Under the pieces are notes generated by a model. The model was not told the origin of the DNA, did not search any database, and saw only the letters and a list, made by a program, of their open reading frames with translations. DNA of 64,000 nt from a virus: positions 1 to 64,000 of IMG/VR virus record IMGVR_UViG_3300032294_002710, one strand, 5' to 3'. Every line of letters begins with the position of its first letter. Position 1 is the stretch's first letter. Of this stretch, positions 3,261-63,905 are shown piece after piece. Position numbers and translations under genes: made by a program.

Positions 3261-3278
3261 AAAATTCATATAATTTGC

Positions 3279-3707
3279 ATGAATATTTTTAAGAAAATAA
3301 GACTTTATAGAGAATATAAATCATTGATTAAAAAAAATCGAGTTAGGTTAGAGTCTGATTTTGGAATTAGAATTGATAGAGCTAACAGAATATATACTGT
3401 TCTAAATATTCCAGAAGAAAGCTTCGGAGAGCCATATAACTTGAGAAAGGGTGACATCGATATAATTTCTGAAAGATTTATTAGAGAATATGTATCTAAA
3501 CTTTCGATGTTTCTTAATGAGATAGGATTATCAGAACTATATGACTTTTATGAGCCCATAAAAAAAGTAGACAAATATTCTTATTTGATAATTTTTGGAT
3601 ATAAGCCTTTCAATTCGGTTGAATATAGTAGATTCATTTGGTTTAGACTAATTCCTATTTCTTTGGTTATTTCGTTAATATTAACTCTTCTTTTCATTTT
3701 AAATTAA
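3279..3707 (+). CDS. Hypothetical protein with C-terminal transmembrane helix
   Basis: 142-aa ORF with hydrophobic tail LIPISLVISLILTLLFILN. Confidence 0.6.
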   Translation: MNIFKKIRLYREYKSLIKKNRVRLESDFGIRIDRANRIYTVLNIPEESFGEPYNLRKGDIDIISERFIREYVSKLSMFLNEIGLSELYDFYEPIKKVDKYSYLIIFGYKPFNSVEYSRFIWFRLIPISLVISLILTLLFILN

Positions 3708-26621: not shown

Positions 26622-26879
26622 TTTCTCTAATTTAATTTTTAAATCACCAGTTCCTTTTATTATTCTGTGATATACCCCTTTGTGTATAAAAACTTTACCT
26701 TCAATTTTTATTGGTAGTTCATTATCTAATTGAAATTTCCAATCAGTTTCTTCAATAGGTTCTATTATTCTATCCTCTCTGTCACGATGCCAAGTTAATT
26801 CACCAGATTCTATATCTTGATAGAATGTTCTAATAAAAGTATTTTCAGATATTTTTTCTTCTTTAAATGGTAGTGTCAT
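26613..26879 (-). CDS. Small cupin-fold protein
   Basis: WHRDREDR...IHKGVYHRIIKG cupin His motifs. Confidence 0.65.
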   Translation of the reverse strand: MTLPFKEEKISENTFIRTFYQDIESGELTWHRDREDRIIEPIEETDWKFQLDNELPIKIEGKVFIHKGVYHRIIKGTGDLKIKLEKLI

Positions 26880-27238
26880 AATGTAAATGTTAAATGTATT
26901 TCTCTTTCTATTATTCCTTGGCGATCTACTTGAATATCTTCAAAATCAAACTCAATTTTAATATCTGGATATTCTTCTTTGACTTTATCAATACAGGACT
27001 TCAAATTATTTGAAAAATCGTATAACTCTTTTATATTTTCATCGTAATAATCAAACATTGTGGTTCTCTTTAAGACTGGTTCTTTTATAAAGATCTCATA
27101 ATAGTCTTCTATTTCATCTGATTCTCCATCACGATTAAATCCTTCAGCTCCCTCATCTAAAAATTCTGAGAATATAAATTTTAAATATTGAATATCTAGC
27201 TCATTAGAATTTGACTCGTTAAATTTTTTTATTTTCAT
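26876..27238 (-). CDS. Hypothetical protein with N-terminal capsid-targeting-like peptide
   Basis: MKIKKFNES. Confidence 0.6.
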   Translation of the reverse strand: MKIKKFNESNSNELDIQYLKFIFSEFLDEGAEGFNRDGESDEIEDYYEIFIKEPVLKRTTMFDYYDENIKELYDFSNNLKSCIDKVKEEYPDIKIEFDFEDIQVDRQGIIEREIHLTFTL

Positions 27239-44427: not shown

Positions 44428-46137
44428 ATGGCATCAACTTATAATCCTCTTGGGCAAAATACAACTCAGTTTAACAGCGCTATTGAAAATCGAGGACTTT
44501 TTAGTAGAATTTTAAGAAACTTATCATCATGGGGTATGAACTATGATGATATGATTATGAGAAACCAAGTCGGTGTTGGTATAAACGAAGATCCTTATAC
44601 TATACAAGGTAACTCAATGTATGACTTCTTTAGTAGAAGAGCTGTTGCCTCTGTTTTAAATAGAAAGTCAATTCCTTATTTAGATAGATCTTATGCTGAT
44701 AAAAGAAGAATTTTAAGAGAATATTCTATAAAGGATGAAATAAGAGATTTCGTATCAACAGTTTGTGATGAATGTGTTATTTACTCTGATAAAGATTTTT
44801 GCAGACCTAAAAACTTATCTAATGACTATACACAAGATGTTACGGATAAATATCAGGAATTCTTTGAGAAAATTTATAATAGATACGGTTTTTCAGATTC
44901 TGTTACCGCTTGGAACTTCATGAAAGATTTCTTGATTGATGGATATTTGGCAATGGAGATAGTTTGGGATGATAAAAAAAAGAATATTATACACTTTAAT
45001 AGATTAAGACCTGAGACTTTGGTTCCAGCTTTTGAACCATCTATAGGTAATATTTGGATTCAGTACCCGGAAGATCCACAATTAAGAAGAATATTTCTTG
45101 ATTCACAAATTATTTTTATTTCTTACTCTACTCAAAATGACTATTCTGAAACTTCATATGTGGAGGGCTTGATAAAACCATATAATCAGTTGAAGATAAT
45201 TGAGCAGACTAAAATTATGTTTAACATAATAAATGCCACTGTTTATCAAAAATTTACTATACCTGTTAAAGGTTTATCTAGACAAAAGGCTGAGGAGCAA
45301 ATAGGTCAATTAATAAATGATTACTCAGAGGAAGTTGAGTGGGATGACTCGTTAGGTACACTTCAAATAAATGGTACTAAACACCTACCATATAATAAAC
45401 AAATTTGGTTTCCAGAGGGTGATGCGGGTACTCCAAATATGGAGTTAGTCTCACCACAAGGACATAACCTAAATGAAGACGATATATTAAAGTGGTTTTA
45501 TAATATTTTAAAAAGAGCTTCAAAAATTCCAGTTCAAAGATTTGAAGGTGATAATGGTGGTGGTAATGTATTTACCGATGCTGCTGAGATGACAAGAGAT
45601 GAGGCTAAGTTTAGTAATTTTATTGGTAGATTAAGAGCGAATTTCAAAGAATTACTTGTTAAACCATTGAAATTGCAAATGTTGGTGGAATTTCCAGAAT
45701 TTAAAGATGATGAGGTTATTTTAAATCAAATTGATGTTGATTTTATTTCAAATCAATTGTTTGAGGAGTGGAAAAAATTAGGAAATATGTCTAAGAAAAT
45801 TGAAATACTTGGTAGTTATACTGGAATTCAGAAGGCTGATGGTACACCTTATTTCCACATAGAATATTTAATAGATCACGTGTTGAAATTATCATCTGAA
45901 GAAAAAGAGGAAAATAAAAGATACTGGGTTAAAGATGCTGCAGGAGCTGGATCTTCAGAGGCAACTCCTGGTGAGGCTGGTGCTGGTGAGGCTGGTGCTG
46001 AATTCGGTGGAGAAGAGGCCGGTGGCGCTCAAGCTACTCCTGAGACCCCTGAAGCTCCCGCTCCTGAGACAGGTGGTGGAGAAGCTGGTGGTGAGGCAGG
46101 TGGTGGAGAAGCTGGTGGTGGAGAATTTGAATTCTAA
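44428..46137 (+). CDS. Portal protein (T4 gp20-like) with Gly/Glu/Ala tail
   Basis: FLIDG, SYVEGLIKPYNQLKIIE, KIPVQRF, TRDEAKFSNFI; located upstream of protease and capsid genes. Confidence 0.93.
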   Translation: MASTYNPLGQNTTQFNSAIENRGLFSRILRNLSSWGMNYDDMIMRNQVGVGINEDPYTIQGNSMYDFFSRRAVASVLNRKSIPYLDRSYADKRRILREYSIKDEIRDFVSTVCDECVIYSDKDFCRPKNLSNDYTQDVTDKYQEFFEKIYNRYGFSDSVTAWNFMKDFLIDGYLAMEIVWDDKKKNIIHFNRLRPETLVPAFEPSIGNIWIQYPEDPQLRRIFLDSQIIFISYSTQNDYSETSYVEGLIKPYNQLKIIEQTKIMFNIINATVYQKFTIPVKGLSRQKAEEQIGQLINDYSEEVEWDDSLGTLQINGTKHLPYNKQIWFPEGDAGTPNMELVSPQGHNLNEDDILKWFYNILKRASKIPVQRFEGDNGGGNVFTDAAEMTRDEAKFSNFIGRLRANFKELLVKPLKLQMLVEFPEFKDDEVILNQIDVDFISNQLFEEWKKLGNMSKKIEILGSYTGIQKADGTPYFHIEYLIDHVLKLSSEEKEENKRYWVKDAAGAGSSEATPGEAGAGEAGAEFGGEEAGGAQATPETPEAPAPETGGGEAGGEAGGGEAGGGEFEF

Positions 46138-49314: not shown

Positions 49315-51045
49315 ATGTCACACATTAGAATAGACAAACAAAAAGCAGTCAAGAAGTGGTCTCCAGTTCTTGAAAACATGGGTGTTACTGGTGATAGAGT
49401 AGAATGGATGTCAGAATATGCTGAGTTCCACTCAATTAACGAGAACGCTTATGCTAACACAGCTATCGCTGGTATGGGAGCTGTTTTAAATCCAGTTATT
49501 GGTGCTAACACACCAGCTGGTGCTTTGACTACAGGTCAAGGTTTCGCTGGAGTTGCTGGTTCTGGAGATTTAGGTCAAAACCTTCTTCCAGTAGCTATGA
49601 AAATTGCAGCTCAAACAATAGGTCTTGACCTTGTTGCTGTTAAACCTTCTCCAGGTCCAAAAATCGATTTACTTTATATTGACTTTCAGTACGATGATAC
49701 TGATTTGACTTTTAACGGTAGACCACAAGTTTTCAAAGTTACTGCACTTAACGGTACTGCATGGTCAGCAGCTAACACTGCAACTGTAACAGCAGCTTTA
49801 TCAGCAGCTACTACATTGACTTCAGGTGGTCTTAGAGGTGGTAGATTATTCTGTACTGGCTCAACAACTGCTGGTGCTACTGGTGCTTTCACTACAACTG
49901 TACCAAGTGATAACGCTTCTAAAGCAGGTGTTCTTGAATTCTTAGGTTTCTCTCGTGTAGATGGTTACCCAATGTTCAGAGCATGGAGACAATCAAACTC
50001 TCAATCAACAGGTGGTGTTTTCAACTCATTACATGCTGGTTACCCATACACTTTTGACCAAACTCAAAACACATTTGGACCAACTGGTTCAATCGTTTCT
50101 CAATTGAACTTCATTGGTACAATCGTTGCATCAGCTTCTTCAGTTGATTTAGTATCAGCTCTTGAAGATCACCTTCCAGGTTTCTCAACTAACTGGACTT
50201 CTTCATCTGCTTCAGGTGATTATCCAATGAGTCGTCAAACTGATGATAATACTTATGCTGGTATTATCGGACCAAAAGTTTCTTCTAAAACTGTAGCTGT
50301 AGGTACTATTGAAGTATCAACTGCTCTTAGAAGAACAGAAATTGAAGATATCAAGGCTAACACAGGTATGGATATCGTTCAAAAGATGGAATCTATCCTT
50401 GTTAACGAATTGTCTCAGACAATCTCTAGACAAATTGTTGATAGAATCTTCTCATTAGGTACTGCTAACAGAAACACTTCTCCATTATCTTATGGTTGTG
50501 CTACTATCCAAGCTACTGCTTCTACAATCTTCGACCTTAACACAGTTTACGCTGGTTCAAGTATCGTTGGTGGTGAAACTACTCACGCTGTTCAACGTAA
50601 GTTGATCACTAAGATGGTTCACGCTTCTAACTACATTGCAACTGAAGGTCGTGTTGGTCCAGCTCAATTCGCTGTAACTAACGGAGGTCTTGCAGCAGCT
50701 CTTATGGATATCGCTGGTTATACAATTAACCCAGTTAAATCTAAGATTACTGGTCAAGGTCAATTATACCCAGTTGGTCAAATCGGTGATATTTCTATCT
50801 ATGTTGATCCTTATATGAAGTATAACGACAACAGAATCGTTCTTGGTAGAAAGAATAACCCAGATCAACCAGGTCTTATCTTCATTCCTTACTTGATGGC
50901 TCAGTCTATCAGTGTAATTTCTGAAGCGACTTTCGCACCAAGAATGTTGTTACGTTCAAGATACGCAATTGCAGATGTTGGATTCTTCCCAGAAAAACAA
51001 TATATGACAATTGTTGTTACAGACATTAACCAATTATTGAACTAA
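49315..51045 (+). CDS. Major capsid protein (T4 gp23-like)
   Basis: KWSPVLE, AQTIGLDLVAVKP, ELSQTISRQI, IYVDPY, FIPY, FAPRMLLRSRYA; strongly biased codon usage. Confidence 0.96.
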   Translation: MSHIRIDKQKAVKKWSPVLENMGVTGDRVEWMSEYAEFHSINENAYANTAIAGMGAVLNPVIGANTPAGALTTGQGFAGVAGSGDLGQNLLPVAMKIAAQTIGLDLVAVKPSPGPKIDLLYIDFQYDDTDLTFNGRPQVFKVTALNGTAWSAANTATVTAALSAATTLTSGGLRGGRLFCTGSTTAGATGAFTTTVPSDNASKAGVLEFLGFSRVDGYPMFRAWRQSNSQSTGGVFNSLHAGYPYTFDQTQNTFGPTGSIVSQLNFIGTIVASASSVDLVSALEDHLPGFSTNWTSSSASGDYPMSRQTDDNTYAGIIGPKVSSKTVAVGTIEVSTALRRTEIEDIKANTGMDIVQKMESILVNELSQTISRQIVDRIFSLGTANRNTSPLSYGCATIQATASTIFDLNTVYAGSSIVGGETTHAVQRKLITKMVHASNYIATEGRVGPAQFAVTNGGLAAALMDIAGYTINPVKSKITGQGQLYPVGQIGDISIYVDPYMKYNDNRIVLGRKNNPDQPGLIFIPYLMAQSISVISEATFAPRMLLRSRYAIADVGFFPEKQYMTIVVTDINQLLN

Positions 51046-51116: not shown

Positions 51117-51512
51117 ATGATAAATAAATACGAGAAGTTTTTAGAATCTAAAAAAGATAAATTTCCTAATATCCAGACAAAAAAATTAGATGATTTTAGT
51201 ATTTTAATAGGTAAAGATGCTGTATCAAATGATTTTTTGACAACTAATATGGCGAATGATGATGACTTGTGGTTTCATGCAGCTGGTGTTCCGGGAAGTC
51301 ATATTGTTATAAAGGTAAGTGATAAGTTACCTATGGAAAAACATATTGAAGAAGTCGCAAAGTTGGCGGCTAAAAACTCGAAAGCACCAAAAGGTGTTAA
51401 AGTTAAGGTAGTCTATTGTAAAGCTAAGTTTGTTAAGAAAAATTCAGATATGAAACCTGGTCAAGTTAGTGTAGATTATAAAAACGCTCAAGAAATAGTT
51501 GTAGAAAATTAA
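51117..51512 (+). CDS. Stand-alone NFACT-R RNA-binding domain protein (RqcH/NEMF C-terminal domain)
   Basis: ILIGKDAVSNDFLT, DLWFHAAGVPGSHIVI, AAKNSK, KPGQV. Confidence 0.88.
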   Translation: MINKYEKFLESKKDKFPNIQTKKLDDFSILIGKDAVSNDFLTTNMANDDDLWFHAAGVPGSHIVIKVSDKLPMEKHIEEVAKLAAKNSKAPKGVKVKVVYCKAKFVKKNSDMKPGQVSVDYKNAQEIVVEN

Positions 51513-51537
51513 TATATAACAAAACGAATTAAATTAT

Positions 51538-52896
51538 ATGGCAGATCCAATTATCTGGTTTAGTGATAAATTACATGATATAATAGATGATATAAATGGT
51601 CCAGTTGCTGAAGCAATGCTTAAGATGTTAGATGGAAACTATTTAACAAAAAATGAATTAAAAATTAAAAAAGTAGATGTTTCTGTTACCGATTGGAATT
51701 TTGATGTTACTGTTGGTAGTGATGGCCAAGTTCCTGTAAAGCAGCGAATGAAAGTTGGTAAGTTTATAAGACATTTCTTTGGTAGTACATTTACCGATAA
51801 ACAGATTTATGACTTTACAATGGCTTATAATAATTTGAAGAAGGGAATTCCTGCTTCTACTCAAACGGCTAAAGTTAGCTATAAAAAGGTAGAAGTTCCA
51901 GAATTTTCATATAATCCAAAAGATGTTAGATCTACATTTTTATCTCTAACAACTAAGACATATCCACACGGACATGAAGAAGAAGTTTTAAAGTTCTTAC
52001 CAAGCCTTGAAAAGGATCAGTTTGGAAATTATTATAAAATAATTGGCAAATCAGAAACAATGTTTACATCACACTTAGATACAGCTGATAGACAACAAAA
52101 AAATGTTAATGTCTATAGTACAATATTAGCAGATGGTGATGAAATGTTCGTTACTGATAATAAATCTATATTGGGTGCAGATGATAAATCAGGTGTATCT
52201 GTTATGTTGTATATGATGGCTCATAATATTCCAGGTGTTTACTACTTCTTTATTGGAGAAGAGAGAGGAGGAATAGGTTCGCATCAGGTTGCTGGTGTTT
52301 TTGAAACAGTTGAACATTTAAAAGGCATGAAGAGATGTGTATCTTTTGATAGAAGAAATTATTTTTCAATAATAACACATCAATTAGGTAGACAATGTTG
52401 TTCAGATCAGTTTGCTCAAGCTTTAGCAAACGAATTGAATAAAGGTGGATTATCCATCGCTTTAGATCCAACAGGTGTTTATACTGACTCCGCTTCTTTT
52501 ATAGATGAGATACCAGAGTGTACGAATATCTCAGTTGGATATTTTTCAGAACATACTGATAGAGAAAGTCAAAACATTTCATATTTAGAAAGATTAGCAA
52601 AATCTTGTCTAAATGTTAAATGGGAAGAACTTCCAACTGTTAAAAAAGTTGGATTTGATGAGGAAATAATGAGAAAGTATAAGCCATTTATTTCAGATTT
52701 TAAATCAACTATATTTAATCTTGAAACAAAGATGGTTAGTGAGTATGGAAGAGCATTTATTAAAATTGATGTTGATGATCCAGATCCTGCTATTGTTTTT
52801 CAAGATTTAAAATCAGTAGAATCATTATTATCTAAGCATAAAATGGATCCAGATATTCAATTTGATGATAATTATATAAAAATAGAACTAAAATAA
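51538..52896 (+). CDS. M28/M20-family zinc peptidase with N-terminal extra domain
   Basis: SHLDT, LGADDKSG, GEERGGIGS, SFDRR, TNISVGYFSEH. Confidence 0.85.
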   Translation: MADPIIWFSDKLHDIIDDINGPVAEAMLKMLDGNYLTKNELKIKKVDVSVTDWNFDVTVGSDGQVPVKQRMKVGKFIRHFFGSTFTDKQIYDFTMAYNNLKKGIPASTQTAKVSYKKVEVPEFSYNPKDVRSTFLSLTTKTYPHGHEEEVLKFLPSLEKDQFGNYYKIIGKSETMFTSHLDTADRQQKNVNVYSTILADGDEMFVTDNKSILGADDKSGVSVMLYMMAHNIPGVYYFFIGEERGGIGSHQVAGVFETVEHLKGMKRCVSFDRRNYFSIITHQLGRQCCSDQFAQALANELNKGGLSIALDPTGVYTDSASFIDEIPECTNISVGYFSEHTDRESQNISYLERLAKSCLNVKWEELPTVKKVGFDEEIMRKYKPFISDFKSTIFNLETKMVSEYGRAFIKIDVDDPDPAIVFQDLKSVESLLSKHKMDPDIQFDDNYIKIELK

Positions 52897-53363
52897 TGAT
52901 AAAGAATGTTAAATTACAAAATATAATTCTTGAAACAAACAGAACTTTTCAAGACGGATATGAAGACGACTATGAGGATGACTATTTTGATCAGTATGGT
53001 AAAGAAGACTTTATTGATGATGATGAGATATCTGAAGAGGAAGAAGAGGATAATCTTGGTTATCTTATAAGAACATTTTTAAGTGCTAGAGGAATTCGTT
53101 CCTATGTTGAAACTGATGGTAAGGATGTTATTATATATGTTTATTTAAATAAAAAAGAGAAAATAAAAAATCTAACTAAAATTTTTGACGTTGTAGTTAA
53201 TAATATGAAGGTACAAATGTTTGAAGATTATGATTTAGAAACTGAGTTGTATGAAACAAAAGAAGGTGAGCATATATTCTCTTTTACTTTCTATGCTGAT
53301 GGAAGTATAGATAAAGATGATTATTCGGATCAAGAAGATTTTACTTCAAGGATACCTTTTTAA
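52896..53363 (+). CDS. Acidic hypothetical protein
   Basis: Asp/Glu-rich N-terminal third; coupled to the upstream stop. Confidence 0.55.
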   Translation: MIKNVKLQNIILETNRTFQDGYEDDYEDDYFDQYGKEDFIDDDEISEEEEEDNLGYLIRTFLSARGIRSYVETDGKDVIIYVYLNKKEKIKNLTKIFDVVVNNMKVQMFEDYDLETELYETKEGEHIFSFTFYADGSIDKDDYSDQEDFTSRIPF

Positions 53364-53380
53364 AAATAGAAAATAAACTA

Positions 53381-53412
53381 TTTGGTGGTTTAATATATAA
53401 TGTGTATATTTG
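53381..53412 (+). promoter_or_regulatory. Composite promoter: Bacteroidota sigma-70 type (TTTG-N20-TATATTTG) with nested AATATATA late motif
   Basis: TTTG at 53381-84, TATATTTG at 53405-12 and AATATATA at 53392-99, upstream of the tmRNA. Confidence 0.65.
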
Positions 53413-53425
53413 TTAAATCTTATTC

Positions 53426-53796
53426 GGGGATGATATGAATTGATTCGCAGAGTAGAGATGATTAAGCAGGCATCGGTTTGGTAAAGTCCGATTAAAATAA
53501 ATTATCAAAATCGTAAACGGAAACGTTACAAATGAAGTAGGAACCAGTGAAGATTTAGTAGCTGCTCTACAAAACAACTTGCTCACTGTGAATGAGCTTG
53601 AAGTAGCCTAATCTTAGGATACATTCTAAAAATTCACACTGAATCACAACAGTATAAATAGTGATAGTTTTTTGTTAGAGTGTTTTTGAGTCGAAACAAC
53701 TATCTATTTTGTAAGTTACAGAAAAACTTTCTAAGCTTGTGAACGATTAACCGTTTTTAACTGAGGAAGACTCCGGTTCGTTACCGGACATCTCCA
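53426..53796 (+). ncRNA. ssrA: tmRNA (transfer-messenger RNA)
   Basis: 5' GGGGATG pairs with 3' CATCTCC-A, giving the G3.U Ala identity pair. T-arm TCCGG-TTCGTTA-CCGGA. Internal tag ORF 53519-53611. About 371 nt; CCA is not encoded (CTA follows). Confidence 0.9.
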
Positions 53797-53827
53797 CTAA
53801 CCACTCCAAAGATAGTATTTTTGGACT

Positions 53828-53857
53828 GACACCAACTCAAAAGGTTGGTGTTTCTTT
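53828..53857. terminator. Intrinsic terminator
   Basis: ACACCAAC-tcaaaag-GTTGGTGT followed by a T-rich tract. Confidence 0.65.
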
Positions 53858-54211
53858 TTATACAATATTGATTTGAATTTTATTTTCTTGGCCACAATCC
53901 CAAATGTTTATAACTTTACATTTTTTATTTAGAGCCTTTTCTATTCTTTCTAAGACTTCTAAAATAGATTTTATTAATTCTAATTTTAGCTTTGAGTATT
54001 CAATTGAATATATGTCTCCCGATATTAATTTGTAGGTATTTATCATTAATGATATCCCTTTTACACTCTTATCAAGAGAGTTGAATGGATATAATTCACC
54101 AGTAATTTCGGGGTAATCATCTTTTAGTTCTTTTAAAATATCTTTAATTTCTGAAATGTCATTTTGATAATCCTCATATTCTGAGTTTTCAAATTTTTTA
54201 AGGTGTCTCAT
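53858..54211 (-). CDS. Hypothetical protein with capsid-targeting-like peptide
   Basis: MRHLKKFENS. Confidence 0.6.
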   Translation of the reverse strand: MRHLKKFENSEYEDYQNDISEIKDILKELKDDYPEITGELYPFNSLDKSVKGISLMINTYKLISGDIYSIEYSKLKLELIKSILEVLERIEKALNKKCKVINIWDCGQENKIQINIV

Positions 54212-54242
54212 AAACTTATATATTAATAAACATATATTAATT

Positions 54243-54743
54243 ATGATAAACTCTTTTACAGGAAGATATAGATTTCTTTCAAATTTCTATCCAGTTGAAA
54301 TAGAACACCAAGGTATTAAATACCCATCAGTTGAACATTATTATGTTGCTATGAAGATTAAAAATGATCAACAAATTGATGGTAAATTTATAACCATGAT
54401 AGATTGTAGAGAAATGATTGCTAAAATACCCGATGCTGGTAAAGCGAAACAATTTGGTAAATTTCTTAAATTGAGAAAAGATTGGGAAGATGTCAAATTA
54501 GATGTTATGCTTTGGGGAATTAGAGAAAAGTTTAAAAATGAAGAACTTAAACAATTGTTAAATGAAACAGGAGATGAGGAATTAGTTGAAGGTAATTTTT
54601 GGGGTGATAAATTTTGGGGCGTTAGTTCTGGTGAAGGTGAGAATCATCTTGGTAAAATTTTAATGAGAGTTAGAGAAGAGGTTAGACAAGTAAATAAGAA
54701 GCCCTCACTTGAAGAGTTTCTAAAAAATAGAAATAAAGAATGA
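54243..54743 (+). CDS. NADAR (YbiA-like) family protein
   Basis: FLSNFY, SVEHYY.AMK, KF, LVEGNFWGDKFWG, GENHLGKILM.VR. Confidence 0.92.
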   Translation: MINSFTGRYRFLSNFYPVEIEHQGIKYPSVEHYYVAMKIKNDQQIDGKFITMIDCREMIAKIPDAGKAKQFGKFLKLRKDWEDVKLDVMLWGIREKFKNEELKQLLNETGDEELVEGNFWGDKFWGVSSGEGENHLGKILMRVREEVRQVNKKPSLEEFLKNRNKE

Positions 54744-55693
54744 GTATTATAAGTTATTTTGGAGGTAAATCCTCTAACACATTTATTGATTTTATCAATA
54801 AACAAATTCCAAAAGATGGTTCTGTAAAAACCTATTTAGAACCGTTCTCTGGTTCTATGGGGACTTATATGGATGATGATAATATGACATTTGATACTGT
54901 CATCTATAATGATAAAAATCGTCACCAGGTGAATCTTTTTAAGTGTTGTTCAGAACCTGAAAAATTTGTTACATATTTAGAAAATTTATCAAAACCATTT
55001 AATCTACTTTATACAGATTTAAAAGATCCATTAAAGAAATGGGATTTCTATAAAGGTATCTATAAAGAGTATATTAAAAACTCATTTTTAGATGATATGA
55101 ATTTTGAAATTGGTGATTTTGAAAAGGCTGCTATTTATGCTTTTCTTATCACATCGGCTCATAATTCTGTTTATCCAAGAGGAGCTGGGTTTAATGGATA
55201 TAAGAAAGATAAAGATAGATTGAAGTTAGAAGTTTTAATTAAGAAGTTGAAACAAAACACATATACTAAAAAACTGCAATCAATTACAGAGTTCAATAAT
55301 ATCGACTTTGAAGAACTTATTTTAAAATATGATTCTGAAGACACTTATCTTTATTTAGATCCACCATATGCTCGTTTTGATGAGACTAAGGGAGAAGATG
55401 ATGCTAAAAGATTGTTTTGGTATGGCGCTGATAAAGATGGTGTTTTTGGACCGGCTTCTCATAGAAGATTATTGGAATTATTAAAGACAACTAAATGTAG
55501 ATGGTCACTTTCATACTATTATTTTCCACTTTTAGAGGAATTATTACCAAGAGACAAATATCGTTGGACACAAAAAGAAGTTTTTAGAAGCTCTGCACAA
55601 GGTGGTAATAATTCAGATCTTAAAAAAGAACAGGCTAAAGGTGTTGAATTACTTATCATGAACTATGATGAGAATTTTAAAAAATTAAGTTAA
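54740..55693 (+). CDS. DNA adenine methyltransferase (Dam/D12 class)
   Basis: YFGGKS, EPFSGS, YND, YLDPPY, ELLIMNY. Confidence 0.9.
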   Translation: MSIISYFGGKSSNTFIDFINKQIPKDGSVKTYLEPFSGSMGTYMDDDNMTFDTVIYNDKNRHQVNLFKCCSEPEKFVTYLENLSKPFNLLYTDLKDPLKKWDFYKGIYKEYIKNSFLDDMNFEIGDFEKAAIYAFLITSAHNSVYPRGAGFNGYKKDKDRLKLEVLIKKLKQNTYTKKLQSITEFNNIDFEELILKYDSEDTYLYLDPPYARFDETKGEDDAKRLFWYGADKDGVFGPASHRRLLELLKTTKCRWSLSYYYFPLLEELLPRDKYRWTQKEVFRSSAQGGNNSDLKKEQAKGVELLIMNYDENFKKLS

Positions 55694-55697
55694 TTAA

Positions 55698-56447
55698 ATG
55701 GACTTTCAAGGATATTTTAATACCGTTTTTAAAAATGTAAAATTTGAAGGATTAGAAAATTTTAATCTATCATCATTTGATCTTTATGAAAAAAGTTCAA
55801 TACAAATTTCTTTACCACCATCTGTGTCTGAGAATGAGGAGTTTTATTTAAACTCTCTATTTGAGACTATTAGAAATCAGATCTCATTAGATGCTCAAAA
55901 AAGGATTTTAGAATCTATTCATAAAAATCCATCAATGTATTTTATTGATATTATGAATTCGCAAGAGAAGTCTAAAAGTAATTTACTTACAGACTATGAT
56001 ACACATGTGTCTTTAGTTAGAGGAATAACATCTCAAATATTGAGACTTAATATTAAAAATATAGTTTCTAATGGTAAGATTCTATCTGAGTATATTGTAG
56101 ATTCTCCGGCTTTTTCACAAGAACCATTAAGTAATAAATTATCAACATCTAATACATTTACTAAGTATGGTAAATTAATTAATATTAATGTCTATATGGA
56201 TTCATTTATGAAATGGAATGATGATTTTATACTTTCTTATGATGATATCTATTATCATATAAAAGATCTGAGTCTTGATATTATTAGTGATTCAAGATTT
56301 GCTCCTCTTTTAAAGGTTAGTTTTAATTTTGCATTTAGAGTAGATAATCCGGGTAAAATATGGGTAATTGATAGTATTAGTTCTGGCGGTTATGTTCATT
56401 ATAAGTCAACTTTAAGAGATAAAAAGATTGATAGTCTATTGGATTAG
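55698..56447 (+). CDS. Truncated major-capsid-protein paralogue
   Basis: Colinear with the C-terminal part of the capsid protein at 49315-51045: IVSNG/AVTNG, INVYMDSFMKWND/ISIYVDPYMKYND, IISDSRFAP/VISEATFAP. Confidence 0.7.
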   Translation: MDFQGYFNTVFKNVKFEGLENFNLSSFDLYEKSSIQISLPPSVSENEEFYLNSLFETIRNQISLDAQKRILESIHKNPSMYFIDIMNSQEKSKSNLLTDYDTHVSLVRGITSQILRLNIKNIVSNGKILSEYIVDSPAFSQEPLSNKLSTSNTFTKYGKLININVYMDSFMKWNDDFILSYDDIYYHIKDLSLDIISDSRFAPLLKVSFNFAFRVDNPGKIWVIDSISSGGYVHYKSTLRDKKIDSLLD

Positions 56448-56496
56448 CAATATTCTTATTTTTAGAATTAATATATAAAAAAATAAAATTACTAAA

Positions 56497-56784
56497 ATGA
56501 TAATTAAGAAGTTTAACGAGTCACAAGATAGTGGAAATGAACTCGAAATGTATTTAGCAGATCTAAAAAAATTAGGATTTGAGGTTAAATATCGTGTTTT
56601 ACAAGGACTTAATGGCACATCAATAAGAGCTACTAAAAGAGATTGTGATTTTAATGCATCTGTTGATGCTTATAAATCTTTATATAACAAATTAGAAAGT
56701 AGTGATAAATATAGTTTTATAAATAATTCTATTAATTTTAATTATGGAACATGCCGTATCTCAATGGATATGAAAAATAAATAA
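56497..56784 (+). CDS. Small protein with capsid-targeting-like peptide
   Basis: MIIKKFNES. Confidence 0.6.
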   Translation: MIIKKFNESQDSGNELEMYLADLKKLGFEVKYRVLQGLNGTSIRATKRDCDFNASVDAYKSLYNKLESSDKYSFINNSINFNYGTCRISMDMKNK

Positions 56785-56810
56785 CCACCTTAGAGTTTTA
56801 TTACTAAATA

Positions 56811-56842
56811 TAAAAAAAGGGAGATGAAAATCTCCCTTTTTT
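56811..56842. terminator. Bidirectional intrinsic terminator
   Basis: AAAAAAGGGAGAT-gaaa-ATCTCCCTTTTTT. Confidence 0.8.
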
Positions 56843-56865
56843 GTATAATAACTTTGTATTTAATA

Positions 56866-57312
56866 TTAGAATCCATTTTCATTTAAAGCCTCTTGTATTG
56901 CAGCTCTAAGAGATGCATGGTGATCATTATCACCTTCATCAAATCCAATTGATTTATCATTGTTTATATCATCGATAAATTCTTGTATAGCCACTTTTAG
57001 AGTTTCTGAGAACTTCTCATAGGCTACAGACTCTTTGATACCACTAAGTACACTTTCCTCAATATGTGATTCCTCGATTGCGTCAATTTTATCTTCGATA
57101 TATCCAGGATTTAAATAATCTATTTTATGAGTTACTTTATTATACTTAGCTCTTGGATTACCAATTAGTTGTTGTCTTTCAGAATTTGGCTTATTCTGTC
57201 TTTTAATTTTCTTTAATTCTGCTTCTTCAGCGTCTTTATTGAAGTCTTTAAAATTAACTACTTTTCTGTTAACATTAAATGTTGGTGTATTATCTTTGTA
57301 AGTCATAATCAA
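56866..57312 (-). CDS. Hypothetical late protein
   Basis: 148 aa; late motif upstream; repeated IEES/IKES. Confidence 0.55.
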   Translation of the reverse strand: MIMTYKDNTPTFNVNRKVVNFKDFNKDAEEAELKKIKRQNKPNSERQQLIGNPRAKYNKVTHKIDYLNPGYIEDKIDAIEESHIEESVLSGIKESVAYEKFSETLKVAIQEFIDDINNDKSIGFDEGDNDHHASLRAAIQEALNENGF

Positions 57313-57351
57313 TATTAGATTTTTTTATATATTAAATTTTAATACTATTTT

Positions 57352-58557
57352 TTAATAGTCATCATCTTCCCAATGTTCATCATCATCTCCATCACCGTCA
57401 TCATCCCATATTATAGTTTCACATCCTGTGAAGCTACTATTGCTTATTTTTCCAGTATTTCTATCCCAGTATCTCATAGTGTCAACTGATGGGTATGAAT
57501 CATATCCACTTGGTTTTACTTTTGTATAGGCTACCCAGGTATCTCTATGTGATTCTTCTCTTACAATGAATCCTTTAGCTTTTGCATACTCTTTAAATAC
57601 ATTTTTATCAGAGTCTTTACTCACATATATGTAGTCCATTAGTTTTTTACCATCTTCTAAGTTCCAAAGTAGTGCACGACCAATAATTTTATTAGGTTGA
57701 TCAAATGATTTAAGTATTAATAGACTAACAGTATCTGGATTGTCGATATAGATTTCCAACCAATCTCTTCTACCAACTGCCTGACAAGATGATCCTAAAT
57801 TACCCATTCTTGGGAACTCATAATTTTCTCTTTTATACCAGAAGTATAGTTCCTCACCGTTTACTATTTCAAATCTTGAGAAAACATCGTTCATAACTGA
57901 TAATATTCCTCTAAATTCGTTTACAAAAACCTCGATTTCAGCATCTGTAAACTTTAAACTCTTCGCATTTAATAGTGATCTAATGGCTCTACCAACTCTA
58001 ATTTCTTGTCTACTAGTTGTGAATATTTTTTTCTTAATTTCTTCACGAGCATCTTTTAACCTTTCTGCATTATACACACCTTCACCATTTTCAAACTTAA
58101 CATAACACCAGGTTTTATTAGTTTTAACTGATAGCCATTTTGAAATAACTTCACCGACTTCTGTTCTATTTGGTTGGTATACCGGTGTTCCGATTGGTGG
58201 CGCCTCATATCCAAGTCTTTTGAAAATATTTTGATTACCTTCTGTGTTTGTTAACCAAGCTCCTCTATTTCCTGTCCAATTTACTAATTCTTTATCATTT
58301 CTTAAAAGTGCTTGAGCTGCTCTATCATTCGTAAATGTTACTATATTATCATTATCTATTTTAACATCAAAGAAGTTAGCTGTTACATCCAAATCTTGAT
58401 TTTCGATTTCTATTAGAGATTTAGCGATGTTGTTATCTTTCATTTTAGAAAGTACATTCTTAAACTTAGGCGAGTAAACAACATTCGACTCAAGAAGTAA
58501 ATTTTCTAATAGTATTCTTTCGGATATAAATTCTCTGTATTCTAAAACTAATTTCAT
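57352..58557 (-). CDS. Phage protein of the 'LGSSC..RALLW..MD.IY..YP..DT' family with capsid-targeting-like peptide
   Basis: GNLGSSCQ, IGRALLW, LMDYIY and YPSVDT motifs; N-terminus MKLVLEYREFISE. Confidence 0.6.
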   Translation of the reverse strand: MKLVLEYREFISERILLENLLLESNVVYSPKFKNVLSKMKDNNIAKSLIEIENQDLDVTANFFDVKIDNDNIVTFTNDRAAQALLRNDKELVNWTGNRGAWLTNTEGNQNIFKRLGYEAPPIGTPVYQPNRTEVGEVISKWLSVKTNKTWCYVKFENGEGVYNAERLKDAREEIKKKIFTTSRQEIRVGRAIRSLLNAKSLKFTDAEIEVFVNEFRGILSVMNDVFSRFEIVNGEELYFWYKRENYEFPRMGNLGSSCQAVGRRDWLEIYIDNPDTVSLLILKSFDQPNKIIGRALLWNLEDGKKLMDYIYVSKDSDKNVFKEYAKAKGFIVREESHRDTWVAYTKVKPSGYDSYPSVDTMRYWDRNTGKISNSSFTGCETIIWDDDGDGDDDEHWEDDDY

Positions 58558-58588
58558 ATAGATATATATTATTTTTATATTTGCATTT

Positions 58589-59047
58589 ATGAACGCTCAT
58601 AAAAAATTACGAGAACTTGGTTTTAAAAAGACCAATTTTTATAAGCCAGGTTATGACCCTGAGACTTATGAATCTTGTATGCTTTTAGATGAGTATGATA
58701 CTAAATGGGAAACAGTTAATGGTAAAAGAGTTTCAGTAAAAGTTAATAAGATACATCCTAAATCAGATTCATTTTGGGTTTTAAAGTATAATGAAAATTA
58801 TATACTTTGGTGTTATGTGAAGTCACATCAAATAGACAAAATATGGGTAGAGAATAAATTAGGAAAGAGTCGAAGTAAAAGTAGGTTGTTATATTATGGT
58901 GTTGGTTCGGGTGATGATAGGTTAAAAATGGTTTTTGATTATAATAACAGGGAATCAAATCCATTACAAGGTAAAAATCAAATTATGAATTTACTACCTA
59001 AAGAAGTAAAAAGAGATTTCTTACTTGAACAACTTTTTGGATTTTAA
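58589..59047 (+). CDS. Hypothetical protein
   Basis: 152 aa; TATATTTG element 5 nt before the ATG. Confidence 0.55.
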   Translation: MNAHKKLRELGFKKTNFYKPGYDPETYESCMLLDEYDTKWETVNGKRVSVKVNKIHPKSDSFWVLKYNENYILWCYVKSHQIDKIWVENKLGKSRSKSRLLYYGVGSGDDRLKMVFDYNNRESNPLQGKNQIMNLLPKEVKRDFLLEQLFGF

Positions 59048-59067
59048 TATATAATATTGTATATTTG
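59036..59067 (+). promoter_or_regulatory. Composite promoter (TTTG-N20-TATATTTG with nested AATATATA) of the release-factor gene
   Basis: TTTG at 59036-39 and TATATTTG at 59060-67; near-identical to the tmRNA promoter. Confidence 0.65.
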
Positions 59068-59071
59068 TACT

Positions 59072-59127
59072 ATGTTTAAAATTTGACTACATAATTATTA
59101 GCGTCTGTGAGTAAAAATCTACTCACA
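59072..59127 (+). promoter_or_regulatory. Candidate leader: uORF M-F-K-I-UGA-L-H-N-Y-UAG plus 8-bp hairpin
   Basis: ATG TTT AAA ATT TGA CTA CAT AAT TAT TAG (59072-59101), then TGTGAGTA-aaaatc-TACTCACA (59106-59127). Confidence 0.45.
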
Positions 59128-59163
59128 AACAATTTTATTGTCTAAAAAATAAAAATAATAATT

Positions 59164-59841
59164 ATGGAACAAATCATTATAGAAATAAGAGCCGCTGAAG
59201 GTGGACAAGATTCAAAACTACTTGTTGAAGATTTAAGAGATATCTATCTCAAAACTGCTAGAGTTAATAACTTTGATTATAAAGTTACTAATCGTGATGG
59301 ATTTACATCAATTTGACTGACTGGTCAGGGAGTTAAATCACTTTTTAAAAACGAAAGTGGTCCTCATCGTTGGTTAAGAATTCCACCAACTGAGAAGAGA
59401 GGTCGAACACAAACTTCAATTATCACTGTTGCACTAACCGATCCTAATGATAAATTAGATTTCAGGTTTAATCGAAATGAGGTTATAAAACAATATACTC
59501 GTAGTAGCGGAAAAGGTGGACAGAATGTTAATCGTAGATCTACCTGTGTTCAATTAACCCATGTACCAACTGGTATTCAAGTTAAATGTCAGGATCAAAG
59601 AGATCAAAGTAAAAATGAGGAATTAGCTTGGATTCGTATTGAAGAGAAACTTAGAATAATACATGATGATTCTCAAAGTAAGACTATTTATCAAAATCGT
59701 TTTGATCAAGTTGGTACTGGTTCAAGATCGGATAAAAAAAGATCATATAGGATCAAAGAGAATTTGGTAGTTGATCATGAGACTGGTAAAACCTGCACAT
59801 TTACTGACTTCTTAAAGGGAAGAATTGATTTATTGTCCTAA
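59164..59841 (+). CDS. Class-I peptide chain release factor (RF1-like, lacking domain 1) with in-frame UGA at codon 51
   Basis: Manual translation: MEQIIIEIRAAEGGQDS...GFTSI*LTG...ESGPHRWLRIPPTEKRGRTQTS...SGKGGQNVN...LTHVPTG...RSDKKRSY...LLS*. PxT and GGQ motifs are intact and both halves are in one frame. Confidence 0.88.
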
Positions 59842-60582
59842 TATTAATTTAAACTCCTCTTCATTTTTAAAACTTTTTTTGGTATTATTTTTCCTTTTGG
59901 TTATACAAAGGTTATCAAGTGATGATATTTCTTCTACTTGATAACCTTTTTTAAATCCTTCAAAGATAGAAATCTTGTGGTCTATTGTTGGATATCTTTC
60001 ATCGTTATAGTTAAGATTGAAGTTTATTTTTATATCTTCTCCGTCATAATAATCAAGTCCGTTCCATTCTTCTATTAGTTTCTTCTTATTTCTTTTGGTT
60101 AGATTGTCAATTAGTTTTCTGTATCTGATGTATTCACTCTTTTCGTCTTCAGATATAAAAATATTATTAATTTGAAAGTAATTATTTACAGACTTTGATA
60201 TTTTATCTTTAATTTCTGGATTATCCTCATAGAGTTTTAAAATAGAGTTTCTTATTTTTTCTCTAACTTCTGGTTTTTTTGCGGGATTTTTACCTCCAAT
60301 TTTTGAATCAGAGTATCTCTTTTTCGACTCATCACTTCTTACTTTACCTTTACAAGATAGACCGATTTTATCTTTATGTTCTTTAGATAATTTTTTTCCT
60401 TTGTGTGACTCAGATAGATTTTTCTTATGATCATCAGAAAAAATTTGTCCTTTTTTTACTTCTGATTGCTTTTTGTAGCCACATTTTCTACAAGAGGAGT
60501 TTTTATCATTTGCTATATTTAAAGAGTCCTTTGACTTATAAGTTATCTCGACAAAACATAATGGACAATTTCTTTTATACAT
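59830..60582 (-). CDS. HNH homing endonuclease with NUMOD3 repeats
   Basis: HKKNLSESHKGKKLSKEHKDKI NUMOD3 repeats; TIDHKIS...NLCITKRKNN HNH-like core. Confidence 0.75.
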   Translation of the reverse strand: MYKRNCPLCFVEITYKSKDSLNIANDKNSSCRKCGYKKQSEVKKGQIFSDDHKKNLSESHKGKKLSKEHKDKIGLSCKGKVRSDESKKRYSDSKIGGKNPAKKPEVREKIRNSILKLYEDNPEIKDKISKSVNNYFQINNIFISEDEKSEYIRYRKLIDNLTKRNKKKLIEEWNGLDYYDGEDIKINFNLNYNDERYPTIDHKISIFEGFKKGYQVEEISSLDNLCITKRKNNTKKSFKNEEEFKLILGQ

Positions 60583-62810: not shown

Positions 62811-63905
62811 TTAAAAATTTTCTTTTATTTCTTGTAATAATTCTTCAAACGATGAGAATTTCATATCATATTCATTTTCTCCATCACCATATGGTCCAGA
62901 ATGACTCTCAGATCTTTTGACAAGTATTTCTTCTAAATCATTGAAGTCTATATTCCAATCTTCGTGAAATCCTTCTGAATATCCACTGGCACCAAAACCA
63001 ATATGAATTGTGTTATTTTCTTCATTGTATTCATAATCTAACCATTTTCCCCAACTCTCATCACTTTCCTCGTTGAGCTTTTTGGATATTTCATCCAGTT
63101 CATAGAAGAAATTTAAAAGAGTATCATCGTACCATTCATAAACTCTTTCAAATTGTTTATCATATGCGTATTTTTTTAACTCCATTACTTTACCAACATA
63201 TCCGTTTCTTCTCAATAATTTGAATACTAAGTTGCCGGTCGAATACTCACCACCTTCTTCTAATCCTGATTGTCTAGATTTTTTTATTTTCTTCCAGATT
63301 TTATCAATTTTTTCCTTAAATGCAGAATATTTATCTTCATCTACCTGAGATTCAATCTCGTCTACAACGTCCATTATTGCAGTTGCCTTTTTGGCTAGAA
63401 CTTCTTCATCTGGTACAAATTCTACTTTTTCTGGTTTCTTAATCCATTTATTTTTCATTAATGAAAATACACCACCCATTCTACCAGTTGATATACCTTC
63501 TTTAAGACTCTTAACATCTTGAAGAGCTACTTCAACTTCATATCCCTTTAGTGTGATATCGTGTTGCATATTCCATTGTTTTTTGGCATAATCGCAAAGT
63601 TTTTCTACAAGCTCTTCATTTTCATCTATTTCTTTATAATCAATAATTATATGTAGGTCATAGTCAGAATATTTTTCGGACCAGTTGTAATTACAAAGAG
63701 ATCCGCAGAATGCGATGTCTTTAACTTCACAGTTTAGTTCAACAGACTCAAAAAAATCTCTACCAATTTGAAGAAGATCTTCTCTTACTTTTGAGTCAAT
63801 TTCAAAATTGTCCCAAATTTTTGGATTTAGATCATCTTTTAAATAAAATGATTTAATTGGCTCAAGATCTTTTTGTTGAAATTCTTCAAATTTTTTGAAT
63901 CTCAT
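62811..63905 (-). CDS. Pol-beta-superfamily nucleotidyltransferase with capsid-targeting-like peptide
   Basis: GSLCNYNW..SDYDLHI (GS...DxD) plus a third acidic residue in EVEV; N-terminus MRFKKFEEF. Confidence 0.75.
   Translation of the reverse strand: MRFKKFEEFQQKDLEPIKSFYLKDDLNPKIWDNFEIDSKVREDLLQIGRDFFESVELNCEVKDIAFCGSLCNYNWSEKYSDYDLHIIIDYKEIDENEELVEKLCDYAKKQWNMQHDITLKGYEVEVALQDVKSLKEGISTGRMGGVFSLMKNKWIKKPEKVEFVPDEEVLAKKATAIMDVVDEIESQVDEDKYSAFKEKIDKIWKKIKKSRQSGLEEGGEYSTGNLVFKLLRRNGYVGKVMELKKYAYDKQFERVYEWYDDTLLNFFYELDEISKKLNEESDESWGKWLDYEYNEENNTIHIGFGASGYSEGFHEDWNIDFNDLEEILVKRSESHSGPYGDGENEYDMKFSSFEELLQEIKENF

Follow-up and report, generated by a model that had tools for sequence, protein, structure and literature searches.

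A stop-interrupted, RF1-derived release-factor gene and an NFACT-R/tmRNA neighborhood in a huge T4-like freshwater phage

Do a release factor, a transfer-messenger RNA (tmRNA), and a putative RNA-binding protein encoded near one another on a phage contig work as one system? The question is raised by the window analyzed here, the initial 64 kb of a virus contig (134,852 bp, 30% G+C; IMG/VR record IMGVR_UViG_3300032294_002710, labeled G000). The window encodes a solo NFACT-R protein, a tmRNA, and a class I release factor (RF) that lacks domain 1 and whose frame is interrupted by TGA. G000, rated about 24% complete by CheckV, has genes for a terminase of T4 type, a portal protein, and a capsid protein of gp23 type. 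DNA of its lineage was found in freshwater and lake metagenomes of several studies, whereas no RNA data set was listed for the region of the three genes. We conclude that its source is a huge T4-like freshwater phage. A preliminary description of the window had proposed that the three genes form an integrated module that keeps ribosomes cycling under abortive-infection defenses. The genes themselves proved genuine, as indicated by a match to PF05670, by a match to RF00023 together with covariation, and by alignment to RF1. Our preferred reading, to which we assign a probability of about 0.55 from sequence comparison, is that the phage carries a conserved head-gene array, in which the tmRNA would act with a phage SmpB, plus an independent RF cassette that would be induced by termination failure. 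The features at issue are the following.

51117..51512, + strand: solo NFACT-R (DUF814) protein, 131 amino acids (PF05670 NFACT-R_1, E 5e-17)
53426..53799, + strand: tmRNA (full-length RF00023 match, 38.2 bits, E 9e-14, local Rfam search)
59164..59841, + strand: RF1-derived class I release factor of 225 sense codons, domain 1 missing, TAA end
59314..59316, + strand: in-frame TGA at codon 51, context ATT TGA C, putative recoding gate
59383-59391 and 59515-59523, + strand: RF motifs PPT (residues 74-76) and GGQ (residues 118-120)

Placement of the three genes in related phages

The closest annotated records were complete genomes of uncultured huge phages, labeled W01 (LR756502, 642 kb), W02 (LR745206, 635 kb), W03 (LR756501, version LR756501.1, 735 kb), and W04 (LR756504, 636 kb). 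Also compared were G001, a 185-kb contig rated 86% complete whose RF locus is L017, and L015 and L016, which are loci on contigs of the phage nearest to the window. The genes that surround the NFACT-R gene, the tmRNA, and the RF gene in the window are as follows.

49315..51045, + strand: major capsid protein, gp23 type, which anchors the conserved gene array (PF07068 Gp23, E 7e-28)
51538..52896, + strand: peptidase, 452 amino acids, directly 3′ of NFACT-R (phrog_4191, E 4e-68)
52896..53363, + strand: acidic protein, 155 amino acids, between peptidase and tmRNA, no family match
54243..54743, + strand: NADAR-domain protein (PF08719, E 2e-26)
54740..55693, + strand: Dam-type N6-adenine DNA methyltransferase (PF02086, E 3e-15)
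59830..60582, − strand: probable homing endonuclease with a NUMOD3 motif; its end overlaps the 3′ end of RF (PF07460, E 4e-4)

A profile made from six NFACT-R proteins retrieved 120 IMG/VR relatives, and 73 of the best 80 loci belonged to one clade (55 distinct NFACT-R sequences). Within these 73 loci, the capsid gene lay 5′ of NFACT-R in 70, and the peptidase gene lay immediately 3′ in 70, the remaining 3 loci ending first. The tmRNA was located 3′ of NFACT-R in 64 loci at a median distance of 1.9 kb, and in the 9 loci without a tmRNA the sequence ended 5 to 3,852 bases past NFACT-R. At L107 and L126 to L128, the tmRNA, NADAR, and Dam genes were inverted together, and NFACT-R did not move with them. 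We conclude that NFACT-R, peptidase, and tmRNA constitute a conserved neighborhood within the head-gene block of one clade, a neighborhood that could reflect shared function or merely shared ancestry.

The RF gene behaved differently: a distance to NFACT-R of less than 8 kb was seen at just 2 of the 73 loci, both on contigs of the nearest relative (L015 and L016). Positions in the complete genomes, in kilobases, were as follows.

W01: NFACT-R 229.6, peptidase 230.0, tmRNA 232.0, RF 107.3, SmpB 367.6
W02: NFACT-R 202.5, peptidase 203.0, tmRNA 204.9, RF 48.1, SmpB 333.0
W03: NFACT-R none, peptidase 440.9, tmRNA 718.4 (21 bits only), RF 358.5, SmpB 199.5
W04: NFACT-R none, peptidase 565.5, tmRNA 280.5, RF 568.6, SmpB 540.1

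Thus, RF lies more than 100 kb from NFACT-R and tmRNA in W01 and W02. No NFACT-R was found in W03 or W04, though RF, tmRNA, and SmpB are present, and G001, at 86% completeness, carries a gated RF while no tmRNA, SmpB, or NFACT-R was found in it. L095 lacks the entire block corresponding to 57352-60582 at the equivalent position. Moreover, a homolog of the NUMOD3 protein abuts RF in G001 as well (L017 10706-11404), in an unrelated genome context, and an arrangement in which the same kind of gene adjoins RF in two such places fits an RF cassette that may be mobile. We conclude that RF is a separately placed cassette and not part of a fixed module. The idea that the three genes cluster therefore holds for NFACT-R and tmRNA and fails for RF, and the expectation that all three would co-occur in relatives was not borne out.

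The preliminary description had also pointed to SmpB, the certain partner of tmRNA, as a gene to be sought elsewhere. SmpB is encoded by all four complete relatives, where it never adjoins the tmRNA, and none was found in the 135 kb of G000, about 24% of the genome. Because SmpB is never next to its partner, the distance between genes says little about their function in such phages.

The same description had inferred a shared promoter for tmRNA and RF, and this part was upheld as a promoter type.

53381..53412, + strand: promoter-like element TTTG-N-TAnnTTTG before the tmRNA, 32 nucleotides
59036..59067, + strand: promoter-like element of the same type before RF, 32 nucleotides
113426-113455, 123113-123143, 129135-129166, 131305-131335, and 131440-131470 of G000: further promoter-like sites

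The first two elements agree at nearly every position and are the sole TTTG-N17-21-TAnnTTTG sites from 45 to 64 kb. The pattern, which we take to be the Bacteroidota housekeeping-promoter consensus, occurred 20 times in G000 against 7.6 ± 2.4 expected from Markov shuffles. Sites of this type also precede an RlaP-family RNA-repair nucleotidyltransferase gene, a Thg1-like gene, and three places in the tRNA arrays of G000. As judged by eye, the tmRNA element was conserved in most of the 17 relatives printed, and the RF element was seen among them only in the window and L015. The distribution supports common expression of dispersed translation and RNA-repair genes, probably by host polymerase, and does not support an operon-like module.

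These data bear on the proposal that NFACT-R, tmRNA, and RF constitute one co-regulated rescue and termination module. In its favor, all three genes are genuine, NFACT-R and tmRNA are conserved neighbors, tmRNA and RF share a near-identical promoter element, and sites of that promoter type stand before tRNA arrays and RNA-repair genes. However, the RF gene is rarely near the other two, NFACT-R is missing from W03 and W04, G001 has RF alone, the RF promoter element is absent from the more distant relatives printed, and the intervening DNA contains unrelated genes in both orientations. We consider a single module improbable.

The release factor and its putative stop-codon gate

The RF protein was most similar to RF1. 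It scored 179.9 bits against the RF1 model NF001859 (also TIGR00019; cutoff, 400) with a match starting at model position 105, 116.4 bits against prfB (TIGR00020; cutoff, 370), and 70.5 bits against PrfH (TIGR03072; cutoff, 166.65), and its decoding motif was PPT, not SPF. Against RF1 in the Protein Data Bank (PDB; 140.6 bits), residues 4 to 211 aligned with Thermus RF1 residues 107 to 321; because the alignment begins at residue 107, where domain 2 starts, domain 1 is missing. Domain 1 is the part of class I release factors that binds RF3 and L11. The 50 codons before the TGA encode a strand and a helix that bears the GG-x-D/E tip, the element that recognizes the first stop-codon base, and thus the part downstream of the TGA would not by itself be a complete decoding domain. 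The positions of Q181 and H193, which we take to be the third-base contacts of Thermus RF1, are occupied by L and Q, respectively, in the window RF.

An RF family profile retrieved 152 IMG/VR relatives, the best 80 of which gave 70 distinct sequences. Every phage member among the best 80 carried HR(W/F)xR(V/I)PPTE or a close variant together with GGQ. All 13 family members scanned ranked RF1 above RF2 and RF2 above PrfH, and none reached a curated cutoff. In bacterial genomes the family was found in 89 places, and carriers included isolates of Nannocystis, Minicystis, Pyxidicoccus, Variovorax, Thiobacillus, and Novimethylophilus and one Cupriavidus plasmid. Public protein sets held the family as products of 225 to 228 residues on short contigs or as pieces of 155 to 180 residues on long contigs, the latter under the name "peptide chain release factor 1."

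Early interruption is a family trait. All seven distinct closest homologs (49 to 77% identity) had one or two in-frame TGAs within codons 39 to 54 and a TAA end, and the column of codon 51 was TGA in six of them. Among the best 80 phage members, 66 of the 70 distinct sequences were interrupted within the first ~55 codons, in the following forms.

One in-frame TGA: 18 of 70
Two in-frame TGAs: 18 of 70
+1 shift at CTT TGA: 16 of 70
+1 shift at CTT TAG: 8 of 70
CTT TAG shift plus TGA: 1 of 70
TGA plus TAG: 2 of 70
TAG only: 1 of 70
TAA plus TAG (perhaps dead): 1 of 70
Deletion form: 1 of 70
Uninterrupted: 4 of 70

A GGAGG-like sequence precedes the shift sites, as in prfB. The base following the 57 in-frame TGAs of the family was C in 30 cases and A in 27, and never T or G. 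Among the best 80 of the 89 bacterial members, 67 had a two-frame form (CTT TGA in 45, CTT TAG in 20, and unclear in 2), 9 had an in-frame TGA, and in 4 no interruption was apparent.

One explanation for a stop codon within a conserved gene is that the gene is a pseudogene or that the TGA is an assembly error, and the splitting of RF by gene callers, which leaves the 155- to 180-residue fragments on long contigs, would be as expected. The interruption, however, recurs in dozens of independent assemblies at 37 to 77% identity with both halves conserved at the protein level, the interrupting codon is, with few exceptions, TGA before C or A, and other members carry a textbook frameshift cassette. 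On these grounds, we regard the pseudogene or error explanation as refuted. Of four DNA runs compared, three from other studies have contigs that cover the RF gene, and none of the differences listed falls at 59314-59316, although those listed are a minority, too few to decide the matter.

Autoregulation of RF2 by recoding is a textbook case, and in prfB the shift site is, we take it, codon 26, in domain 1. As in prfB, a class I RF gene is here stopped early such that stop recognition competes with recoding, and many family members have the identical cassette GGAGG..CTT TGA C. Unlike RF2, the phage factor is RF1-like (PPT rather than SPF), lacks domain 1, and has its site in domain 2; the window gate is an in-frame UGA that needs readthrough and no frameshift, and some members use CTT TAG. 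The RF1 family was described as not known to use the prfB mechanism in a reviewer comment within the portion of PMC1586002 cited here. A second parallel is the eukaryotic-type release factor eRF1 of giant viruses (Mimivirus R726 and Megavirus mg280), whose genes need two events, readthrough at UGA-C and a shift at CUU UAG C, as stated in the cited part of PMC3521657. The likeness lies in a giant virus with its own release factor, a 5′ UGA-C readthrough site and/or CUU-stop +1 site, a leaky stop context that is rare at true gene ends, and a proposed role in offsetting a declining host factor. The viral eRF1 differs in having a eukaryotic/archaeal fold and in reading all three stops, so that self-regulation is straightforward, whereas the phage protein has a bacterial RF1 fold, bacterial hosts, and mostly one kind of gate rather than both. 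No description of a recoded phage release factor was found in the open-access literature and bioRxiv; unopened supplements, such as that of PMC7162821, may list such genes.

TGA is otherwise a regular stop in these phages, at the end of 12 to 19% of genes (G000, 17 of 146; W01, 121 of 831; W02, 150 of 796), and the coding density of G000 under code 11 was 0.91. The next in-frame TAA or TAG followed TGA stops at a median of 4.5 codons versus 9 after TAA stops (Mann-Whitney p 1e-16, pooled over G000, W01, and W02), and TAG-ended genes resembled TAA-ended genes (medians of 10.5 in W01 and 8 in W02). C followed the gene-ending TGA in only 7 of 288 cases in the three genomes. Neither G000 nor any of the four complete relatives yielded a UCA-anticodon tRNA with ARAGORN. 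The back-up stops, the C and A contexts within RF, the lack of a called tRNA(UCA), and the otherwise normal use of TGA suggest that UGA may terminate leakily, or be vulnerable as a stop, during infection by these phages, a weakness that the RF gene would exploit. A whole-phage code in which TGA is sense was rejected, as TGA ends 12 to 19% of genes and no tRNA(UCA) was called. Selenocysteine at the TGA was likewise set aside: no tRNA-Sec was called, and relatives that lack the stop do not have Cys at this position.

Several tRNAs of the complete relatives are unusual. ARAGORN reported a number of odd tRNAs with two- or four-letter anticodons in W01 to W04, one of which adjoins the W04 tmRNA (W04 281045-281120), and two adjacent tRNAs with the amber-suppressor-like anticodon CUA lie at W03 690585-690738. 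The tRNA-Trp(CCA) of W02 (343033-343104) and one of the two in W03 (204163-204235) show U11 paired with A24 in the D stem, which we take to be the Hirsh UGA-suppressor state. The same feature is stated for the Mimivirus tRNA-Trp in the part of PMC3521657 cited above.

One idea is that UGA is read as sense, through a dedicated suppressor tRNA or a late code switch of the kind proposed for phages with recoded stop codons, in which case the gate would be a timing device rather than a sensor of RF activity. The idea gains from the 18 of 70 phage members with two in-frame TGAs, which are hard to pass by chance readthrough, from the U11-A24 pair in W02 and in one of the two tRNA-Trp genes of W03, and from RF1 genes within a "code change module" of TGA-recoded Jade phages, as given in the cited portion of a preprint (bioRxiv 10.1101/2021.08.26.457843). 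Against it, TGA ends 12 to 19% of genes, RF is the sole G000 gene with homology tied to both sides of an internal TGA, W01 and W04 have no tRNA-Trp, and no tRNA(UCA) was called by ARAGORN in G000 or W01 to W04, odd tRNAs being ones that could be missed. Moreover, the suppressor tRNA and the many late in-frame stops by which Borges et al. (preprint) recognize phages with a code-change module were not found. We hold decoding by a suppressor or code switch to be improbable.

A further possibility is that RF is a PrfH-like rescue factor for damaged or stalled ribosomes, with the stop gate setting only its timing. Like PrfH (also called RFH), the phage protein lacks domain 1, keeps GGQ, has a length of ~200 to 230 residues, and occurs in mobile or conflict contexts; the absence of domain 1 from PrfH is described in the part of PMC1586002 cited here. 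The matches to PrfH were weak, at 70.5 bits for TIGR03072 and 60 bits for PDB 9mor, with 41.9 to 88.4 bits for TIGR03072 in 12 further family members. RNA-repair genes are present on the phage contig, and two of the 10 bacterial loci are of the same flavor: at L359 (Novimethylophilus kurashikiensis), the family member (3035-3667) directly follows a 737-residue kinase-phosphatase-RNA ligase (717-2927) with domains AAA_33, Metallophos, and RNA_lig_T4_1, and at L326 it lies near a metallophosphatase. By analogy, the ligase-RF arrangement of L359 resembles that of PrfH with RtcB.

The phage RF is nevertheless far closer to RF1 than to PrfH (180 versus 70 bits), misses the PrfH cutoff of 166.65 bits, and, with its family, keeps the RF1 elements for reading stops (the helix-5 tip GGxD/E, PPT-E, and RGR-x-(H/Q)-TS), whereas the cited part of PMC1586002 describes the PrfH decoding region as altered, with a conserved Arg after the motif, and does not report PrfH recoding. 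No RtcB was seen among the Pfam matches of the window neighbors, 122 further G000 open reading frames (ORFs), and the 10 bacterial loci. We therefore consider a PrfH-like rescue role unlikely and retain the reading in which RF is a termination factor induced through its gate. The portion of a bacterial release-factor survey cited here names only RF1, RF2, ArfB, and RFH (PMC6514570).

The leader of the RF gene contains a possible second control.

59072..59101, + strand: leader mini-ORF ATG TTT AAA ATT TGA, four codons, TAG
59090..59166, + strand: predicted structure of the 5′ untranslated region, in which 59090-59100 pairs with 59156-59166, including the RF start codon, around an inner hairpin at 59107-59126

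The RNA from 59068 to 59175 had a minimum free energy of −22.8 kcal/mol (z −6.2), and none of 200 shuffles folded as well. The RF start codon was also paired in the minimum-free-energy structures of L015 (z −2.0), W01 (z −6.5), and G001 (z −1.5); in L015 it pairs with a different partner, one that covers the leader TGA. Leader counterparts were ATG AAA CTA TGA ... TAG in L015 and TGA ATA CAT AAT TAT TAG in W01. According to these folding models, RF is probably subject to a further control by its leader, which would conceal the start codon: readthrough of the leader UGA would melt the helix between 59090-59100 and 59156-59166 and open the RF start site.

The tmRNA, NFACT-R, and other genes of the contig

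The tmRNA escaped standard searches. ARAGORN called no tRNA or tmRNA in the window, and Rfam at its gathering score found no tmRNA there, yet a local search gave an RF00023 match that spans the full model (positions 1 to 374) at 38.2 bits, under the gathering score of 47. The tmRNA was aligned with its counterparts in L015, W01, W02, and W04, and RNAalifold on the five sequences recovered the acceptor stem, the long P2 helices, the stem of the first pseudoknot (PK1), and the T arm. Compensatory changes were present in 27 of the 70 predicted pairs, the acceptor and T stems included, and the 7-bp acceptor stem GGGGAUG/CAUCUCC had a G3:U70 pair that was invariant in 5 of 5 sequences. We take the two negative searches to be false negatives, as the local match and the covariation show a tmRNA.

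The reading frame for the tag starts from resume codon GGA.

53519..53611, + strand: tmRNA tag frame, resume codon GGA, 30 codons GNVTNEVGTSEDLVAALQNNLLTVNELEVA, then TAA
53830..53859, + strand: terminator-like hairpin CACCAAC/GTTGGTG with a T run, 3′ of the tmRNA, read from sequence

All five aligned sequences keep the frame through synonymous changes and a 3-nucleotide in-frame indel, and the peptide is conserved over its entire length. Moreover, ARAGORN itself called tmRNAs in three relatives (L157, L158, and L161) with tags of this kind, and the tags predicted for L157 and L158 match that of the window. The 3′ end of the tmRNA is A-CUA; therefore, CCA is not encoded and must be added posttranscriptionally. 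The terminator-like hairpin is also present in L015. We conclude that 53426-53799 is a divergent but genuine tmRNA gene.

Detection in relatives was similarly uneven. The W04 homolog scored 65.2 bits with RF00023, and the strict-filter RF00023 search of W01 and W02 gave only tRNA-sized matches, their tmRNAs being found with a custom nhmmer profile. Rfam at E ≤ 0.01 returned nothing for L015 to L017, although L015 has a tmRNA of 78% identity. The phage RNA resembles the tmRNA of tmRNA-SmpB trans-translation in being one piece and in having an alanine-identity acceptor stem, a pseudoknot region, a resume codon, and a tag frame. The tag of a tmRNA usually ends in AA. Unlike in known tmRNAs, the phage tag has 30 residues, is conserved throughout, and ends in VA, and CCA is not encoded. 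Al-Shayeb et al. report tmRNAs in huge phages, called with ARAGORN, and the portion of their study cited here counts RF1, RF2, tmRNA, and SmpB among genes of huge phages but gives no such particulars (PMC7162821). Since the window tmRNA falls below the Rfam gathering score and is missed by ARAGORN, surveys based on that program would undercount such tmRNAs.

The NFACT-R ORF, which begins 72 nucleotides downstream of the capsid gene, scored 62.9 bits against PF05670 (cutoff, 29.8) and more weakly against the NFACT-R_2 model, and it matched no other family. The proteins of six relatives align at 55 to 75% identity, with a conserved N-terminal KDKFPN stretch. The NFACT-N domain (PF05833) had no match in G000, W01, or W02, and therefore 51117-51512 encodes a solo RNA-binding domain and not RqcH. 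The phage protein shares the NFACT-R (DUF814) domain with RqcH/NEMF and with solo NFACT-R proteins (CCDC25/Jlp2) and, unlike RqcH/NEMF, consists of NFACT-R alone, without the RqcH parts for tRNA recognition and tailing. In the part of PMC4075521 cited here, NFACT-R is predicted to bind RNA or tRNA, and solo forms are known as CCDC25/Jlp2, with others in ThiI fusions. From its fixed place near the tmRNA, a role of the phage protein on tmRNA, tRNA, or stalled ribosomes is plausible. No description of a phage NFACT-R was found in the open-access literature and bioRxiv, supplements aside.

Other observations concern NFACT-R and its neighbors. The W01 ORF (L014 1132-1821) has an additional acidic N-terminal part of ~100 residues. 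Solo NFACT-R ORFs also occur on viral contigs L166 (7968-8330) and L168 (7953-8282), whose neighbors, an RFC-like clamp loader, topoisomerase II, and a dual-specificity phosphatase fold, resemble those of giant eukaryotic viruses. The distant NFACT-R loci L166 to L172 except L169 (n = 6) had no Rfam match; as the two loci inspected look like giant eukaryotic viruses, this set is uninformative on an NFACT-R/tmRNA link in phages. The peptidase had a weak PepT/M20-like match (TIGR01883, E 4e-7, far under cutoff), and the acidic protein has homologs at the same position in relatives.

An N-terminal signature, M-x-x-(K/R)-K-F-(N/E)-(E/N)-(S/F), was shared by 14 of 158 G000 proteins and by 1 of 650 internal Met controls; window examples are 53858-54211 (−), 56497-56784 (+), 26876-27238 (−), and 62811-63905 (−). 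The signature could be a targeting or propeptide signal or could mark a family of related N termini. The NFACT-R protein, which the preliminary description had credited with a packaging tag, fits it only loosely at its N terminus, MINKYEKFLES, and both the tag and any role of the signature in targeting to the capsid are conjectural. ARAGORN called 28 tRNA genes in the second half of G000. The contig also encodes GreA, an FKBP isomerase, and the following.

44428-46134 of G000: portal protein
91994-93439 and 125499-126083 of G000: TROVE (Ro60-like) protein and PP-loop ATPase (ATP_bind_3 family), respectively

Proposed mechanism and meaning

The preferred reading, a head array with a tmRNA plus an independently placed RF cassette, would operate as follows. 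The conserved array runs capsid, solo NFACT-R, peptidase, acidic protein, tmRNA, NADAR, and Dam. Within it the tmRNA, under its own host-type promoter and terminator, would perform trans-translation with an SmpB encoded elsewhere and would add an unusually long, conserved 30-residue tag. Synthesis of RF would be licensed by termination failure: a stop at UGA-51 would leave a 50-residue piece, and readthrough would yield the full factor. The phage would thus make its own terminator for UAA, and probably also for UAG, once UGA termination, i.e., host RF2 activity, weakens. The activity sensed may be that of host RF2 or of the phage factor itself, if the latter is able to read UGA. The comparisons above establish the genes, the conservation of the gates, and the predicted structure; from them we infer that readthrough occurs, whose activity is sensed, which codons the factor reads, and whether NFACT-R or tmRNA is involved.

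Several points weigh against this mechanism. By the tripeptide rule, an RF1-type factor should not read UGA, and therefore a UGA gate would not be self-limiting as in prfB and would depend on the sensing of host RF2. Only frequent readthrough would allow more than rare synthesis of the members with two UGAs, and no suppressor tRNA was found. UGA and UAG gates on proteins with the same PPT motif fit an omnipotent, self-sensing factor equally well, and some bacterial relatives adjoin RNA-repair genes, which hints at rescue over plain termination. The excess of back-up stops may partly reflect young TGA stops that arose just before an old TAA. As for the leader, its AUG at 59072 lies ~5 nucleotides past the promoter element and may be at the extreme 5′ end of the RNA or outside it, and in W02 the start codon is unpaired and the leader fold is absent.

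A broader possibility, which we advance tentatively and with the odds against it, is that the domain-1-less PPT factors are an undescribed fourth branch of bacterial class I release factors that would, as a rule, be induced by termination failure (through readthrough of UGA or UAG or a +1 shift as in prfB), would possibly be omnipotent, and would, in the present phage clade, act beside a long-tag tmRNA and a solo NFACT-R. If so, the branch would span huge phages, Myxococcota, and scattered Proteobacteria and would supply an inducible back-up terminator. Likewise, a phage-owned layer of termination and rescue would tolerate loss of host RF2 and would explain the back-up stops after TGA-ended genes.

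Recoding control of release factors has been known for RF2, with a similar case in one giant eukaryotic virus family; here, hundreds of sequences from phages and bacteria show such gates on a domain-1-less factor of RF1 type. New in this work are the test of the module, the NFACT-R-tmRNA array, the validation of the tmRNA, the promoter class, the back-up-stop statistics, and the bacterial RF members. Because RF genes are split and tmRNAs fall below threshold, both are undercounted when huge phages are surveyed for translation genes. The family offers a natural series of interchangeable gates (UGA readthrough and CUU UGA and CUU UAG shifts) on one protein scaffold, which allows tests of termination sensing and of a release factor without the RF3-binding domain. 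Finally, the NFACT-R/peptidase/tmRNA neighborhood provides a first handle on the function of solo NFACT-R in a virus.

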